Source: Escherichia phage vB_EcoP-22664BS1
Length of the DNA: 39,133 bases
Strand: one strand, 5' to 3'
Sequence record: MZ234009.1
The notes beneath the pieces were generated by a model, which was not told the origin of the DNA, did no database searches, and was given only the letters and a program-made list of their open reading frames with translations. Below, one piece after another: positions 6,148 to 35,178 of this stretch. Within the stretch, counting starts at the first letter, position 1. Each line of letters opens with the position of its first letter. The translations under genes were made by a program, and so were the position numbers.

Positions 6148-6159
6148 ATCTCTTAAGTG

Positions 6160-6205
6160 TTAGACTCAAGGTCATTACTGTGTGTAGTGGCCTTTATGGT
6201 TAACA
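6160..6205 (+). promoter_or_regulatory. Conserved hairpin element (RNase III processing-site-like, R18.5 position)
   Basis: agactcaaggtc...gtggcctttatgg motif shared with elements at 15301 and 22521 and with recalled T7 RNase III sites. Confidence 0.45.
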
Positions 6206-6257
6206 CTAACTAGTGGAGGAGACTCTACGTGAAATCTGATAAACCGGGAGGGCAACT

Positions 6258-9850: not shown

Positions 9851-9902
9851 ACTACAGGGTCTTTGAGTCTACATCTGAAGGCCCTGACTGATAGTCACTA
9901 AC
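9851..9902 (+). promoter_or_regulatory. Early-region conserved element (actacagg...ggcctgactgatagtcactaac), putative RNase III processing site
   Basis: One of four related copies, each preceding an early gene. Confidence 0.35.
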
Positions 9903-9909
9903 TTAAAGG

Positions 9910-10173: not shown

Positions 10174-10219
10174 ACTACAGGTCGTTAGACTGATAGCGGC
10201 CTGACTGATAGTCACTAAC
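10174..10219 (+). promoter_or_regulatory. Early-region conserved element, copy 2
   Basis: actacaggtcgttagactgatagcggcctgactgatagtcactaac. Confidence 0.35.
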
Positions 10220-10247
10220 ACATAATTAACTTTGAGAGGATATAACT

Positions 10248-10903: not shown

Positions 10904-10947
10904 ACTACAGGTCATCAATGCTGGTGGCCTGACTGATAGTCATTAAC
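10904..10947 (+). promoter_or_regulatory. Early-region conserved element, copy 3
   Basis: actacaggtcatcaatgctggtggcctgactgatagtcattaac. Confidence 0.35.
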
Positions 10948-10963
10948 AACTGAGAGGGAAGAT

Positions 10964-15280: not shown

Positions 15281-15303
15281 CCTAAACTATCACTATAGGC
15301 TTA
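15281..15303 (+). promoter_or_regulatory. Phage RNAP promoter (phi1.1-like)
   Basis: cctaaactatcactataggc. Confidence 0.65.
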
Positions 15304-15345
15304 GACTCAAGGTCATGACTCAAAGTCGTGGCCTTCATGATTAAC
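15301..15345 (+). promoter_or_regulatory. Conserved hairpin element (RNase III-like, R1.1 position)
   Basis: ttagactcaaggtcatgactcaaagtcgtggccttcatgatta. Confidence 0.45.
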
Positions 15346-15376
15346 CCTAAATAAACACTACTGGAGATTTAACCGT

Positions 15377-19232: not shown

Positions 19233-19723
19233 TGAGCAAGAAGTTTAAACTGTTAGTAGATGCGCATGGCTGGCCTAGTGGGACTATAGTTACCAAGTGT
19301 GAGAATGACCCCGTACCAGATTCAAGAATGACCCTAGTTGAGTGCCAGACTCCAGGCGCATACAAACATGGGTCTAACGGCTGCAATACTCAGCCTGAGG
19401 GTATGTGGGGAGCATGGGTCCTTAATTGGAAACTTGAGGAAATCAAGCCGGAAGAGAAACTCACTGGTGTCCAAACCACTCAAGTCCTGCCAGCTTCGAG
19501 CGTACCGCCTGTGACTTTGAAGCGTGAAGTCCTGACCATCGACAAGATTGGTGTAGGCCAGACGTTCATCGTCCATGGAAAGCCTGAAGAAGTTTACGTG
19601 AAGATTAGCAACTCACACGTCTTCAACCATAAGCATCTCCAGATGCACACCACGGACGCACAACGCTTCACCCAGCACCTGAATCTGGTTGTCGTAGAAT
19701 TGGTGGTGTACAATGGTAAGTAA
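19232..19723 (+). CDS. Hypothetical protein (163 aa) between endonuclease I and lysozyme; no T7 counterpart recognised
   Basis: ORF track 19229..19723; AGGAG 8 nt before ATG at 19232; TGATG overlap with gene 3. Confidence 0.55.
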   Translation: MSKKFKLLVDAHGWPSGTIVTKCENDPVPDSRMTLVECQTPGAYKHGSNGCNTQPEGMWGAWVLNWKLEEIKPEEKLTGVQTTQVLPASSVPPVTLKREVLTIDKIGVGQTFIVHGKPEEVYVKISNSHVFNHKHLQMHTTDAQRFTQHLNLVVVELVVYNGK

Positions 19724-20226
19724 GGTACAGTTCAATCCACGGTCCCGGACCGACGCTATCTTCGTTCACTGTTCGGCTACCAAGCCAGAGATGGACATCG
19801 GGGTAGAGACCATCCGTATGTGGCACAAGCAGCAAGGCTGGCTGGACGTAGGCTACCACAGAGACCATCCGTATGTGGCACAAGCAGCAAGGCTGGCTGG
19901 ACGTAGGCTACCACTTTATCATCAAGCGCGATGGTACTGTGGAAGAGGGACGCCCTGTCAATGTCGTAGGGTCACACGTTAAGGACTGGAACTCACGGTC
20001 TGTAGGCGTCTGCCTTGTAGGTGGAATTGACGCTAAGGGCAAGTTTGAAGCTAACTTCACTCCAGCCCAGATGAACTCCCTGCGCAACAAGCTGGCTGAC
20101 CTGAAGGACTTGTATCCTCAGGCAGAAATCAAGGCTCACCACGATGTAGCACCAAAGGCTTGCCCAAGTTTCGACTTGCAGCGCTGGCTTAACACTAACG
20201 AACTGGTCACTTCCGACCGAGGCTAA
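19713..20226 (+). pseudogene. 3.5: Lysozyme / N-acetylmuramoyl-L-alanine amidase (gp3.5) disrupted by a 55-bp tandem duplication (19805..19859 = 19860..19914) causing a frameshift
   Basis: Track ORFs 19713..19982 and 19873..20226 both match T7 lysozyme (N part TDAIFVHCSATKP...WHKQQGWLDVGYH; C part FIIKRDGTVE...HHDVAPKACPSFD...ELVTSDRG); the 55-bp unit is repeated exactly and deleting one copy restores one ORF of about 153 aa. Confidence 0.7.
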
Positions 20227-20516: not shown

Positions 20517-20595
20517 GTCTCCATAGCTCAAACGGTAGAGCGGCGGGTCGTGATGGCCTATTGCGATTAGGGTTCGAATCCCCGTGGAGACGCCA
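20517..20595 (+). tRNA. tRNA-like element (canonical acceptor stem, D-arm, T-loop and encoded CCA; irregular anticodon arm; isotype unresolved, possibly anticodon CGU)
   Basis: gtctcca/tggagac 7-bp acceptor stem, gctc-aaacggta-gagc D-arm, ggttcgaatcc T-loop, 3' gcca; the anticodon arm only pairs with a G-G mismatch and the variable region is 9 nt. Confidence 0.4.
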
Positions 20596-30373: not shown

Positions 30374-30396
30374 ACTAAACTATCACTATAGGGAGA
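30374..30396 (+). promoter_or_regulatory. Phage RNAP promoter (phi10-like), full consensus
   Basis: tgactaaactatcactatagggagacc. Confidence 0.75.
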
Positions 30397-30498: not shown

Positions 30499-31548
30499 AT
30501 GGCAAACGTTCCGGGTCAGAAAGTTGGTACAGACCAAGGTAAAGGCAAATCTGGTTCCGACGCTCTGGCGTTGTTCCTGAAGGTCTTTGCTGGCGAAGTC
30601 CTGACAGCATTCACTCGCCGCTCTGTAACTGCTGACAAGCATATTGTCCGTACCATTCAGAACGGTAAGTCTGCTCAGTTCCCGGTCATGGGTCGCACCT
30701 CTGGTGTGTATCTGGCTCCGGGTGAGCGACTGTCCGATAAGCGTAAAGGTATCAAACATACCGAGAAAGTGATTACCATTGATGGTCTGCTGACTGCCGA
30801 TGTGATGATTTTCGACATTGAAGACGCGATGAACCACTATGACGTGGCTGGCGAGTACTCCAACCAGTTGGGCGAAGCTCTGGCTATCGCTGCCGATGGT
30901 GCGGTACTGGCTGAGATGGCTATTCTGTGTAACCTACCGGCTGCATCTGATGAAAACATCGCTGGTCTTGGCAAAGCGTCTGTGCTGAAAGTTGGTACTA
31001 AAGCAGACCTGAACACTCCGGCTAAGCTGGGTGAAGCAATCATCGGTCAACTGACCATTGCTCGTGCGAAGCTGACATCCAACTACGTTCCTGCTGGCGA
31101 CCGTTACTTCTACACCACGCCGGACAACTACTCTGCAATCCTCGCGGCTCTGATGCCGAACGCTGCTAACTATGCTGCGCTGATTGACCCAGAGACTGGT
31201 AACATCCGTAACGTAATGGGCTTCGTGGTTGTTGAAGTTCCACACTTGACTCAGGGTGGTGCTGGGGAAACTCGTGGTGCCGATGGTATCACTATTGCGA
31301 CTGGTCAGAAGCACGCCTTCCCAGCTACTGCTACTGGTGATGTTAAAGTTGCTCTGGACAACGTTGTGGGCCTGTTCTCTCACCGTTCTGCTGTAGGTAC
31401 TGTTAAGCTGCGTGACTTGGCGCTGGAACGTGACCGTGACGTCGATGCTCAGGGCGACCTGATTGTTGGTAAGTACGCTATGGGTCACGGTGGTCTGCGT
31501 CCAGAAGCAGCAGGCGCACTGGTTTTCACAGCGGCGTCAGCGGGTTAA
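30499..31548 (+). CDS. 10: Major capsid protein (gp10A)
   Basis: Near-identity with T7 gp10A over long stretches (KHTEKVITIDGLLTADV, ALMPNAANYAALIDPE, HRSAVGTVKLRDLALER, YAMGHGGLRPEAAGA). Confidence 0.97.
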   Translation: MANVPGQKVGTDQGKGKSGSDALALFLKVFAGEVLTAFTRRSVTADKHIVRTIQNGKSAQFPVMGRTSGVYLAPGERLSDKRKGIKHTEKVITIDGLLTADVMIFDIEDAMNHYDVAGEYSNQLGEALAIAADGAVLAEMAILCNLPAASDENIAGLGKASVLKVGTKADLNTPAKLGEAIIGQLTIARAKLTSNYVPAGDRYFYTTPDNYSAILAALMPNAANYAALIDPETGNIRNVMGFVVVEVPHLTQGGAGETRGADGITIATGQKHAFPATATGDVKVALDNVVGLFSHRSAVGTVKLRDLALERDRDVDAQGDLIVGKYAMGHGGLRPEAAGALVFTAASAG

Positions 31549-31811
31549 CGACCCTTAAGGCCCTCTCTACAGAGGGTCCTACCTTAGAGACGTATAGTTC
31601 TACGGTGGGAACCAGCCTGAAGGTTGACTTCCCTGAGCTTTCAGATGTGACCGATTGGTCGCTGCTTGAGGTGACTACGCCTGATGGTGTTAGCTACTCC
31701 CGTAGAACCAACAGTCTCTACTTCAAGGCCACCTCTGGCGTGGAAGGTCTCGTGATTGTTGGGTATGACTGGACGCCTGTGCGTTCCTTCAACGTATCTT
31801 TCACAAACTAA
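30499..31811 (+). CDS. 10: Predicted minor capsid protein 10B made by -1 ribosomal frameshift at GGTTTTC (31521..31527), extending about 94 codons to the stop at 31809..31811
   Basis: Hand translation of 31527..31605 in the -1 frame shows no stop, and that frame continues into track ORF 31605..31811; heptamer position matches the known T7 10A/10B frameshift region. Confidence 0.55.
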
Positions 31812-31814
31812 TTG

Positions 31815-31858
31815 AAACCCCTTGGGTGCCTTCGGGTGCTTGAGGGGTTTTTTTTCTT
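31815..31858 (+). terminator. Intrinsic terminator (T-phi-like) after the capsid gene
   Basis: aaccccttgggtgccttcgggtgcttgaggggtttttttt: GC-rich hairpin plus T8 tract, resembling T7 T-phi. Confidence 0.75.
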
Positions 31859-31970: not shown

Positions 31971-32537
31971 ATGGCTCAATACATTACACTGAATGCTAAC
32001 GATGACTTAGATGCCATCAACGATATGTTAGCAGCTATCGGTGAACCAGCAGTCCTACAGCTTGACGAAGGTAACGCTGACGTCTCGAACGCTCAACGTA
32101 TCCTGCATCGTGTCAATCGTCAGGTCCAAGCTAAAGGCTGGAACTTTAACATCAACGAAGCTGCTGTCCTGACACCTGATGTCCAAGACAATAGGATTCG
32201 ATTCCTGCCGTCTTACCTTCGGGTCATGACTGCTGGTGCTACCAGTTACTACAGCAACATGGGGGGCTATCTCTATGACCTGTCCACTCAGTCCACGACC
32301 TTCACTGGACCAATTACAGTCGAACTGGTGGAGATGAAACCGTTCGCTGAGATGCCTGTAGTATTCCGTGACTACATCGTTACCAAGGCCAGCCGTGAGT
32401 TCAACGCTAAGTTCTTCGGTAGCCCAGAGTCTGAACTGTACCTTCGTGAGCAGGAAGCAGAACTCTATCAGCAGGTCATGGAATACGAGATGGATACTGG
32501 TCGCTACAACATGATGTCAGACATCGGGAGGGACTAA
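31971..32537 (+). CDS. 11: Tail tubular protein A (gp11)
   Basis: Colinear with T7 gp11 (NAQRILH.VNRQVQAKGWNFNI.E, EMP..FR.YIVTKASR.FN..FFG.PE, EYEMD.G.YNM). Confidence 0.9.
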   Translation: MAQYITLNANDDLDAINDMLAAIGEPAVLQLDEGNADVSNAQRILHRVNRQVQAKGWNFNINEAAVLTPDVQDNRIRFLPSYLRVMTAGATSYYSNMGGYLYDLSTQSTTFTGPITVELVEMKPFAEMPVVFRDYIVTKASREFNAKFFGSPESELYLREQEAELYQQVMEYEMDTGRYNMMSDIGRD

Positions 32538-32764
32538 TGGCTAGTCACAACCTGAAGATTCACCGCCAGCACTTTGGTCCGGTACAACTAGGTCTAAAGA
32601 CAGCAGAGCTGAGACTTAACGACCGGGACTTTAAGGTTGGCGACTGGCTTATCCTGAATGAGTGGGACAACGGGTATACTGGACAACAGGTAGCGCGTAA
32701 GGTTGTCCACATTGCTGACGTTGGTGAGATCGCTGAGGGATATGTCCTAATGAGTATGATTTAA
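32537..32764 (+). CDS. DUF3850/ASCH-like small protein (75 aa) inserted between tail tube genes 11 and 12
   Basis: ATGA overlap with gp11 stop; motif H.LKI....F..V..G.KT.E.R.NDRDF.VGD.L.L.EW....YTG matches my memory of the DUF3850 consensus. Confidence 0.6.
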   Translation: MASHNLKIHRQHFGPVQLGLKTAELRLNDRDFKVGDWLILNEWDNGYTGQQVARKVVHIADVGEIAEGYVLMSMI

Positions 32765-32773
32765 GGAGAGCCT

Positions 32774-35131
32774 ATGCCATTAATTACGCAAAGCATAAAA
32801 AATCTTAAAGGTGGTATTAGCCAACAGCCTGACATCCTGAGGTTCTCAGACCAAGGCGAGGCTCAAGTTAACTGCTGGTCATCCGAGAGTGATGGCCTCC
32901 AGAAGCGTCCACCTACAGTCTTCAAGCGACGTCTTAACATCGACGTTGGGAGCAACCCTAAGTTCCACCTGATTAACCGTGATGAGCAGGAGCAGTATTA
33001 CATCGTGTTCAACGGGTCCAACATTCAGGTAGTCGACTTGAGCGGTAATCAGTACTCAGTTTCAGGTGCGGTAGACTACGTTAAGTCGTCCAACCCGCGA
33101 GATGACATCCGTGTCGTTACAGTTGCAGACTATACGTTCGTCGTTAACCGTAAGGTTGTCGTTAAAGGTGGAAGCGATAAGTCACACTCTGGTTATAATC
33201 GTAAAGCACGCGCTTTAATTAACCTGCGTGGTGGACAGTATGGTCGCACCCTTAAGGTAGGAATCAACGGAGGCGTTAAGGTTTCGCATAAGTTGCCAGC
33301 AGGTAATGATGCCGAGAATGACCCTCCTAAGGTTGATGCTCAGGCTATCGGTGCAGCTCTGAGAGACCTTCTTGTTGCTGCTTACCCTACCTTCACGTTC
33401 GACCTTGGGTCTGGATTCCTGTTAATCACTGCCCCTTCAGGGACTGACATTAACTCAGTGGAGACGGAGGATGGCTACGCTAACCAGCTAATCAGCCCAG
33501 TACTCGACACGGTGCAAACAATCTCTAAGCTGCCTCTTGCAGCTCCAAATGGGTACATCATTAAGATTCAAGGTGAGACCAACAGTAGCGCCGATGAGTA
33601 TTACGTGATGTATGACTCCAACACTAAGACGTGGAAGGAGACAGTAGAGCCGGGAGTGGTCACTGGGTTCGATAACACCACAATGCCACATGCTCTGGTT
33701 AGACAATCTGACGGCTCCTTTGAGTTCAAGACTCTGGACTGGTCTAAGCGGGGTGCTGGTAATGATGACACAAACCCTATGCCTAGCTTCGTGGATGCTA
33801 CGATTAACGATGTGTTCTTCTACAGGAACAGGCTAGGGTTCTTGTCAGGAGAGAACGTAATCATGAGCCGTTCAGCCAGCTACTTTGCGTTCTTCCCTAA
33901 GAGTGTGGCGACATTGAGTGATGATGACCCTATTGACGTAGCTGTAAGTCACCCTAGAATCTCAATACTTAAGTATGCCGTTCCGTTTAGCGAGCAGCTA
34001 CTACTTTGGTCAGATGAGGTGCAGTTCGTGATGACAAGCTCGGGGGTCCTTACCTCGAAGTCTATCCAGCTTGATGTAGGCTCAGAGTTTGCCTTAGGAG
34101 ATAACGCCAGACCGTTCGCTGTAGGACGCTCAGTCTTCTTCTCAGCGCCTCGTGGGTCATTCACCAGTATTAAGCGATACTTCGCTGTAGCAGATGTGTC
34201 TGACGTGAAGGATGCCGATGATACCACTGGTCACGTACTGTCCTATATCCCTAACGGGGTGTTTGACATTCAAGGTACAGGGACTGAGAACTACATCTGC
34301 GTCAACTCCACAGGTGCATACAACCGAATCTACATCTACAAGTTCTTGTTTAAGGACGGCGTACAACTTCAAGCCTCTTGGTCGCACTGGGAGTTCCCTA
34401 AAGCTGATAAGATTCTGGCGTCTGCGTCGATTGGCTCTACCATGTTCATTGTTCGTCAGCACCAAGGGGGTGTGGACATTGAGCACCTTAAGTTCATCAA
34501 GGAGGCAACCGACTTTCCATTAGAGCCGTATAGACTCCACGTTGACTCTAAGGTGTCTATGGTAATCCCAATTGGCTCATATAACGCTGACACCTATGAG
34601 ACTACGGTCGACATTGGTTCTGCTTATGGTGGAAACGCTCCGTCTCCCGGTCGGTACTATCTGATTGACAGTCAGGGTGCCTATGTGGACCTTGGTGAAC
34701 TGACCAGCATCTCAACTGTGGCTATACTCAATGGCGATTGGTCGGGACGTACAGTGTTCATCGGACGGTCTTATCTGATGTCCTACAAGTTCTCACGGTT
34801 CCTGATTAAGATTGAAGACGATAGTGGCACTCAGTCTGAAGACACTGGACGTCTACAGCTTCGTAGGGCTTGGGTCAACTACAAGGACACCGGCGCTCTT
34901 AGACTCATTGTCAGAAACGGTGAGCGGGAGTTCGTGAACACCTTTAATGGGTACACCCTTGGTCAGCAACCCATCGGGACTACCAACATTGGGGACGGTC
35001 AGTATCGCTTCGCTATGAATGGTAACGCATTAACCACGAGTCTAACCTTAGAGTCAGACTATCCTACCCCAGTGTCCATCGTTGGGTGTGGCTGGGAGGC
35101 GTCATACGCTAAGAAAGCTCGTTCCGTCTAA
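32774..35131 (+). CDS. 12: Tail tubular protein B (gp12)
   Basis: Colinear with T7 gp12 (SQSIKNLKGGISQQPDILR, FFYRNRLGFLSGEN, DDDPIDVAVS, RRAWVNY, GCGWE). Confidence 0.95.
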   Translation: MPLITQSIKNLKGGISQQPDILRFSDQGEAQVNCWSSESDGLQKRPPTVFKRRLNIDVGSNPKFHLINRDEQEQYYIVFNGSNIQVVDLSGNQYSVSGAVDYVKSSNPRDDIRVVTVADYTFVVNRKVVVKGGSDKSHSGYNRKARALINLRGGQYGRTLKVGINGGVKVSHKLPAGNDAENDPPKVDAQAIGAALRDLLVAAYPTFTFDLGSGFLLITAPSGTDINSVETEDGYANQLISPVLDTVQTISKLPLAAPNGYIIKIQGETNSSADEYYVMYDSNTKTWKETVEPGVVTGFDNTTMPHALVRQSDGSFEFKTLDWSKRGAGNDDTNPMPSFVDATINDVFFYRNRLGFLSGENVIMSRSASYFAFFPKSVATLSDDDPIDVAVSHPRISILKYAVPFSEQLLLWSDEVQFVMTSSGVLTSKSIQLDVGSEFALGDNARPFAVGRSVFFSAPRGSFTSIKRYFAVADVSDVKDADDTTGHVLSYIPNGVFDIQGTGTENYICVNSTGAYNRIYIYKFLFKDGVQLQASWSHWEFPKADKILASASIGSTMFIVRQHQGGVDIEHLKFIKEATDFPLEPYRLHVDSKVSMVIPIGSYNADTYETTVDIGSAYGGNAPSPGRYYLIDSQGAYVDLGELTSISTVAILNGDWSGRTVFIGRSYLMSYKFSRFLIKIEDDSGTQSEDTGRLQLRRAWVNYKDTGALRLIVRNGEREFVNTFNGYTLGQQPIGTTNIGDGQYRFAMNGNALTTSLTLESDYPTPVSIVGCGWEASYAKKARSV

Positions 35132-35155: not shown

Positions 35156-35178
35156 CCTTAACTATCACTATAGGGACT
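35156..35178 (+). promoter_or_regulatory. Phage RNAP promoter (phi13-like), embedded between the arms of a 12-bp inverted repeat (35139..35150 / 35177..35188)
   Basis: ccttaactatcactatagggact; flanking aagggcctatag / ctataggccctt. Confidence 0.65.

Follow-up and report, generated by a model that had tools for sequence, protein, structure and literature searches.

The 75-codon ORF between the genes of the two tail tubular proteins of Escherichia phage vB_EcoP-22664BS1 (MZ234009.1; the whole 39,133-nucleotide stretch analysed is called the window below) encodes a protein of the DUF3850 family with an ASCH/PUA-like beta-barrel fold, an assignment of which we are nearly certain. As judged from sequence comparison, the ORF is a genuine gene under purifying selection. 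Taken as a whole, our reading, to which we would give an even chance, is that this is a Kayfunavirus accessory gene (11.05), and that its product is an ASCH/PUA-like base-pocket protein and perhaps an N-acyl hydrolase. The gene, its flanks and its translation signals are as follows.

31971-32537, plus strand: gp11, tail tubular protein A, the 5' flank (Pfam Tube, E 6e-46)
32526-32532, plus strand: Shine-Dalgarno sequence GGGAGGG for the DUF3850 ATG, within the 3' end of gp11, found by sequence inspection
32537-32764, plus strand: DUF3850/minimal ASCH ORF of 75 aa (8.5 kDa, pI 6.4), a stand-alone domain corresponding to gene 11.05 of Citrobacter phage CR44b
32591-32626, plus strand: motif codons 19-30, G-L-K-T-A-E-L-R-L-N-D-R, comprising the ASCH octapeptide GxKxxExR (GKER type) and then the DUF3850-specific N-D-R
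32763-32768, plus strand: Shine-Dalgarno sequence AAGGAG for gp12
32774-35131, plus strand: gp12, tail tubular protein B/nozzle, the 3' flank (Pfam Phage_nozzle, 1093 bits)

The first-pass annotation of this DNA had placed a 75-aa ORF at these coordinates between tail tubular genes 11 and 12, and the ORF is present there. An overlap with the gp11 stop codon was also described correctly, but it is not the ATGA that had been reported: the gp11 stop TAA (32535-32537) and the ATG of the DUF3850 gene (32537-32539) form TAATG and share the single base 32537. The GGAGG core of the Shine-Dalgarno sequence lies 5 nt upstream of this ATG. At the other end, the Shine-Dalgarno sequence of gp12 overlaps the DUF3850 stop codon (32762-32764) and is placed 5 nt before the gp12 ATG at 32774. 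In T7 genes 11 and 12 are separated by a 23-nt spacer free of ORFs, which agrees with the earlier statement that gene 12 follows gene 11 directly there and makes the DUF3850 gene an extra one. The protein should be translated from its own Shine-Dalgarno sequence, possibly coupled to the termination of gp11. The DUF3850 frame is open for 29 codons upstream of its ATG; a gp11-DUF3850 fusion by a -1 frameshift was considered and rejected, as a slippery heptamer is lacking and the ATG is preceded by a strong Shine-Dalgarno sequence.

The DUF3850/ASCH-like nature proposed for the protein was borne out when it was compared with the DUF3850, ASCH and PUA models, as significant matches were obtained by sequence as well as by fold. 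Pfam DUF3850 (PF12961) was matched with E 1.1e-19 and 70.8 bits (cut-off 22.9) over profile positions 2-76 of 77, and ASCH (PF04266, PUA clan) with E 7.5e-6 and 27.0 bits (cut-off 21.2), here over profile positions 2-62 of 103 only. PHROG 986 ('RNA-binding protein') was matched with E 2.6e-35, while NCBIfam gave no match for the ORF and Rfam at gathering thresholds nothing in or near it. The C-terminal helical segment that closes the pocket in ASCH (profile positions about 63-103) is missing; as the ASCH match stops at profile position 62 and the protein ends at residue 75, it appears to be a truncated or minimal ASCH. The only clear match by sequence to a solved structure was PDB 3IUW (phmmer E 7.7e-11; E 2.7e-25 with a 44-sequence profile), a structural genomics entry for the 'activating signal cointegrator' NP_814290 of Enterococcus faecalis V583. 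It has the same DUF3850 fold, although it comes from a Gram-positive source and the identity is about 40%. An AlphaFold model built on the 44-sequence alignment (mean pLDDT 97, pTM 0.80) has the order beta1, alpha1, beta2-beta6, and DSSP assigned it the elements E3-9, H10-17, E23-27, E37-43, E47-61 and E69-74, which contain the ASCH core as defined in PMC7641849. In this model the phage protein adopts the 3IUW fold.

Residue conservation is concentrated in the motif. The octapeptide, defined as in a recent preprint (10.64898/2026.02.27.708502), reads G19-L-K21-T-A-E24-L-R26 in the phage protein, which also matches the DUF3850 signature K-T-x-E-[LIF]-R-x-N-D-R-x-[FY]-x-x-G-D. Residues K21, E24, R26, N28, D29 and R30 were invariant in alignments of 44 and 20 relatives, and among 75 diverse multi-domain relatives K21, E24, R26, D29 and R30 were again invariant and N28 nearly so. 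Across the family H4, L6, K7, G19, G35, D36, E42 and G49 are nearly invariant. Using hhalign, K21/E24/R26 were aligned onto the catalytic K21/T24/R26 of YqfB with a probability of 82.7%.

The transcription signals around the gene were mapped next to its translation signals.

30378-30392, plus strand: phage RNA polymerase promoter core upstream of gene 10 (phi10), the last phage promoter 5' of the DUF3850 gene
31814-31851, plus strand: strong stem-loop and T-run terminator (Tphi equivalent) in the gap between genes 10 and 11, a 17-bp stem and then the T-run
35160-35174, plus strand: next phage promoter (phi13 equivalent), downstream of gp12

The promoter core AACTATCACTATAGG occurs in the window in 11 copies against about one expected, and no copy lies between 30378 and 35160. 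The terminator occupies the same place as Tphi of T7. Sigma-70-like and terminator-like sites were not more numerous than in shuffled sequence, and none of them falls within 32537-32764. The DUF3850 gene, without a promoter of its own, is part of the gp11-gp12 transcription unit, which the Tphi-like terminator precedes. Since it has its own Shine-Dalgarno sequence but lacks a promoter, it should be transcribed late together with gp11 and gp12, by read-through of the terminator as we infer from the promoter map. The gene had been suggested to be a moron. It does lie, as an additional gene, between genes that are neighbours in T7, K1F, pO2 and SH4, but it lacks its own promoter and terminator. 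In GC content it does not deviate from the flanking genes (48.7% vs 49.2% in gp11 and 49.3% in gp12); thus, it is not a moron in the strict (Hendrix) sense.

The phage of the window is a Kayfunavirus (Autographiviridae, Studiervirinae); identity in the region is 99.8% with Escherichia phage vB_EcoP-101118UKE1 and 98.3% with LM33_P1, two members of that genus. A gp11 of the Kayfunavirus type (at least 80% of its length) was found in 222 phage records and the DUF3850 gene, at the nucleotide level, in 164 of them, with the ORF intact in every case. According to these records about three quarters of the Kayfunavirus-type genomes appear to carry the gene at the gp11/gp12 site, and CR44b 11.05 and CDSs of LM33_P1, Vec13, GA2A and further Kayfunavirus records are orthologues that occupy this very site and overlap the gp11 stop codon in the same way. 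The gene had been called unexpected, but in Kayfunavirus it is common and, as argued below, ancestral, and it is already annotated in public records as 11.05 (CR44b), as 'RNA-binding protein' and as 'DUF3850 domain-containing protein'. Most Kayfunavirus orthologues are 96-99% identical to the protein of the window. Orthologues at 65-77% amino acid identity have kept the length, the stop/start overlap and the position, and in distant relatives the divergence of the gene follows that of gp12. Across 13 Kayfunavirus genomes dN/dS (Nei-Gojobori) was 0.15 for the DUF3850 gene, 0.03 for gp11 and 0.06 for gp12. The CR44b copy (record coordinates 2054-2278) is divergent; it carries E24D and has S-I-P in place of N28-D29-R30, which suggests decay or relaxed constraint, or an altered function, in that lineage. 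Four Kayfunavirus-like records with a DUF3850 gene 97-99% identical to that of the window (MT350292, PV615262, OM256482 and PV485104) are labelled as phages of Enterococcus, Acinetobacter, Providencia and Klebsiella; these labels are questionable, unless the phages have a strikingly broad range of hosts.

Three types of gp11/gp12 junction were found: the occupied one, that of K1F and pO2, and that of SH4 and EcL30g, which has an 11-nt spacer. In SH4 gp11 is followed by gp12 and the DUF3850 gene is absent. In K1F and pO2 gp11 leads by TAATG straight into gp12, which corresponds to the occupied site minus exactly 237 nt, from ATG to ATG, and the GGGAGGG Shine-Dalgarno sequence stands directly before gp12. 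Neighbour-joining trees were built for gp11 and for the first 1200 nt of gp12; in these, K1F and pO2 were nested among carriers of the gene (the nearest carrier having 98.9% identical gp11 and 97.1% identical gp12), and the deepest branches were carriers too. These trees show the insertion as ancestral for the sampled Kayfunavirus and K1F and pO2 as secondary, precise losses, from which it follows that the gene would be dispensable for growth on at least some hosts. No nucleotide match was found in 5,426 complete E. coli genomes, which indicates that E. coli prophages are not a recent source of the gene.

Diversity at third codon positions was lower in the DUF3850 ORF (32496-32720; 0.062) than in gp11 (0.170) or gp12 (0.157), and none of the 823 sliding 75-codon windows of the flanking genes was as low. 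The DUF3850 gene is at least 95% identical to that of the window in 143 of the 164 copies, whereas gp11 of the same phages is mostly at 80-95%. The simplest explanation for this dip would be a recent recombinational spread of one allele; constraint on synonymous sites could be another. RNA structure was unconvincing as a cause, as the fold of 32500-32800 gave only a weak signal (z = -1.76). Antisense ORFs at 32560-32712 and 32594-32710 and alternative sense frames were also considered and were put down to chance, as they are not conserved in divergent orthologues.

It is very likely that the gene is a dispensable accessory gene whose product is not part of the virion. The position within the gp11-gp12 operon, and the possible translational coupling to it, could be taken to suggest a tail assembly factor or a minor virion component, but we consider such a role highly improbable. 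Tails are made without the gene in K1F, pO2 and SH4, as well as in T7, which has no counterpart of it; the homologues in sipho- and myoviruses are located in replication modules, and the fold is a barrel of the nucleic-acid type. In the GenBank record of CR44b mass-spectrometry matches are flagged for gp9, 10A, 11, 12 and 14 and not for 11.05, although small proteins are easily missed. In Enterobacter phage B1, virion mass spectrometry of eight gel bands confirmed six structural proteins, and the DUF3850 ORF was not among them (PMC12785254). The absence of the gene from K1F and pO2 together with the unflagged 11.05 of CR44b indicates that it is dispensable and that the protein is probably not a virion component. 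Dispensability, the degeneration seen in CR44b and the fact that the same junction houses selfish endonuclease genes in other genera would also fit a spurious ORF or a neutral passenger. This is the least probable of the explanations considered, in view of the dN/dS of 0.15, the intact ORF in all of the 164 records, the motif retained at 65-77% identity and the strong Shine-Dalgarno sequence.

DUF3850 is widespread outside this genus. A profile search of 1.84 billion representative proteins gave 15,303 clusters (50% identity) at E <= 1e-3 and 3,773 at E <= 1e-10, and tblastn found the domain in 554 phage records, including P2-like and T1-like coliphages and phages of Listeria, Enterococcus, Gordonia and cyanobacteria. 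In 57 other viral loci the neighbours were gpA-type nickase, primases, helicases, NinB, methyltransferases, endonuclease VII, HNH and Holliday-junction resolvase, and there was no structural-gene family among the 25 most often matched neighbour families. Given these replication and recombination neighbours, the location in a structural operon is unusual for the family. In the P2-type phages (Yersinia phage L-413C/Peduovirus) orf91 lies directly 3' of the replication gene A; its DUF3850 domain is about 42% identical to the phage protein, but orf91 has 150 aa with a C-terminal extension and belongs to a temperate myovirus, unlike the gene of the window in its structural operon. A Pfam scan of the 75 multi-domain relatives revealed few partners, DUF551 in eight and a few HTH domains (LexA, Crp, MarR and DnaA_C). 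DUF3850 has also been described fused to ParB-CTPase, with parA adjacent (PMC12704722); in these prophage fusions, which are enriched in phages, the same domain is joined to a CTP-binding ParB fold, whereas here it stands alone. The gp11/gp12 junction itself appears to be a permissive insertion site, or hotspot, in Studiervirinae. In the Klebsiella phage KN4-1 (Przondovirus) an Endonuclease_7 gene is found at this junction (1100-1633, Pfam E 7e-26). In phage B1 the junction holds a 75-aa and a 158-aa ORF (ORFs 40-41; PMC12785254), a two-ORF arrangement that was not found in other records.

What the protein might do can be approached through its ASCH relatives. In a recent preprint, ac4C was removed from tRNA by every one of the 19 ASCH proteins assayed, which came from bacteria, archaea and humans (10.64898/2026.02.27.708502), and the Lys/Glu dyad of the octapeptide was essential in TthASCH, EOLA1 and TRIP4, with Glu to Asp tolerated (bioRxiv 10.64898/2026.02.27.708502). 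The 19 proteins include no phage or DUF3850 member. The GKER-type Lys/Glu dyad is present in the phage protein as the invariant K21 and E24. The motif by itself is no proof of activity, since ZmASCH and TRIP4 carry the same motif and do not hydrolyse free ac4C (10.64898/2026.02.27.708502). The dense invariant polar residues, the size of 8.5 kDa and the pI of 6.4 fit a small enzyme or a specific base pocket and fit less well a DNA mimic, against which the pI argues, or a general binder. In our reading a soluble protein would be produced late alongside the tail proteins, and a pocket formed by H4, K21, E24, R26, N28, D29, R30, D36 and E42 would hold a flipped-out base or a free nucleoside. An exocyclic N-acyl group would then be hydrolysed, as by an ac4C-type eraser, by analogy with the Lys/Glu pair of GKER-type ASCH proteins; the candidate substrates are ac4C34 of the host tRNA-Met, other RNA, or DNA. 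We consider it likely that the protein is a base-pocket binder of nucleic acid or nucleoside. That it is also a hydrolytic eraser is a more tentative suggestion drawn from this analogy, and tRNA ac4C as the specific target is doubtful.

The comparison with characterised proteins also provides points against the eraser reading. The GKER-type proteins reported as tRNA ac4C deacetylases (TthASCH, 2DP9; EOLA1; TRIP4) are about 30-50 residues longer than the phage protein, which, compared to TthASCH, lacks the C-terminal helical part with Y81 and has the extra invariant N-D-R. In E. coli YqfB (1TE7/9KYF), an N4-acetylcytidine amidohydrolase of the GKTR type with the catalytic residues Lys21, Thr24 and Glu74, Thr24 stands where the phage protein has Glu24, and E74 has no counterpart. 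A Glu at residue 24 and the missing E74 region indicate that the phage protein is not a YqfB-type enzyme. The truncation appears to count against hydrolysis, as the missing part supplies E74 in YqfB and Y81 in TthASCH. The loss of N-D-R together with E24D in CR44b likewise seems to speak against our best reading, and so does the near-neutral charge of the protein, which leaves no obvious basic cleft. Zymomonas mobilis ZmASCH (5GUQ), a Mg-dependent ssRNA nuclease of 148 aa, has such a basic cleft, and equivalents of its key residues Y47, K53 and S128 are not evident in the phage protein (PMC5615036).

Alternatively, the barrel might be a non-catalytic reader or regulator, which would only bind a modified base or, as the database label 'RNA-binding protein' has it, RNA, and would influence how phage or host transcripts are translated, or how stable they are, late in infection. 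We find this possible but rather unlikely, because the nine invariant or nearly invariant polar residues within 75 aa resemble an active site rather than a surface for binding, all ASCH proteins tested, TRIP4 and ZmASCH included, were active on tRNA in vitro, and a general RNA binder would be expected to have a pI above 6.4. Another explanation is a protein directed at DNA, reading or erasing a base modification in replication, recombination or partition; it might serve in counter-defence by reversing base acylation imposed by the host or by evading modification-dependent restriction. Whereas tRNA or RNA would be expected from ASCH biochemistry, DNA is suggested by the genomic surroundings and fusions of DUF3850 in other phages. 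The replication and recombination neighbours in the 57 loci, including the place of orf91 after gene A, and the fusions to HTH domains and ParB-CTPase (PMC12704722) favour DNA over tRNA, and ASCH has been predicted to be a reader of modified DNA in GNAT-EVE and RM operons (PMC7641849). However, the tools used gave no sign of modified DNA in this phage, and late expression would come too late for protecting the incoming DNA. The literature searched held no report of anti-defence for ASCH or DUF3850, and no curated defence or anti-defence model or published phenotype was found apart from a PADLOC match that was marginal (PDC-M07B, E 0.0075 over 33 residues). Nothing that speaks directly for the regulatory or the anti-defence role suggested earlier came to light. 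A function directed at DNA is, in our view, improbable as it stands.

Returning to the eraser, the most novel form of the idea is that DUF3850 proteins are minimal phage-borne enzymes that use the Lys/Glu ASCH dyad to remove an N-acyl mark from cytosine, either from ac4C34 of the host tRNA-Met or from nucleic acid that a GNAT-type toxin or defence system of the host has acylated. This is speculative, argued by analogy, and we would not expect it to hold in full. If it were true for tRNA-Met ac4C34, decoding would be retuned late in infection, and if it were true for GNAT acylation, the protein would act in counter-defence by damage reversal, like the orphan DarG-like antitoxins of T4-like phages.

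For the window alone, this is an ordinary and correctly recognised accessory gene. The wider interest comes from DUF3850 itself, which is one of the most widely distributed small domains in phages and mobile elements. Functional data on DUF3850 were not found in the literature, and a preprint on a screen of phage accessory genes makes no mention of T7-like, Autographiviridae or K1F phages, of tail tubular proteins, or of PUA or RNA-binding proteins. The activity of ASCH proteins as ac4C deacetylases is a recent lead that provides a concrete assay for DUF3850. In addition, the LM33_P1-like carriers and K1F/pO2, which differ by the 237 nt, form a natural plus/minus test bed in a tractable host.

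Some other features of the window deserve mention. In relatives a 68-aa 'hypothetical protein' of its own is annotated at 31605-31811, in the -1 frame relative to gene 10A (region 31523-31811). No stop codon interrupts this frame from at least 31485 up to the one at 31809-31811, gene 10A has the T7-type slippery sequence G GTT TTC at 31523-31529, and in CR44b 10B is annotated as a joined CDS; the 68-aa ORF probably represents the C-terminal part by which the frameshift product gp10B is extended. The gp3.5 amidase/lysozyme gene contains a perfect 55-nt tandem duplication (19805-19914) and is split by it into two ORFs, 19713-19982 and 19873-20226. In MZ234021, which is 99.8% identical, the 55-nt unit occurs once and there is one intact endolysin CDS of 459 nt. 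The duplication is a mutation that shifts the reading frame or else an artefact of assembly. A tRNA-like element (20517-20595, plus strand) is found between the gp4 primase/helicase gene and a degenerate phage promoter (20453); it scored 36.7 bits with the Rfam tRNA model (gathering threshold 29) and was called tRNA-Thr(CGU) by ARAGORN. It is present in only about 34 of 180 related records; those of vB_EcoP-U8 and CHRF_30111 list it as tRNA-Thr and tRNA-OTHER, respectively. Finally, a 30-nt repeat beginning with GGCCTGACTGATAGTCACTAAC occurs three times (9874-9903, 10191-10220 and 10919-10948) upstream of small ORFs of the early region, and a 65-nt repeat is found as a pair at 6148-6212 and 15289-15353.
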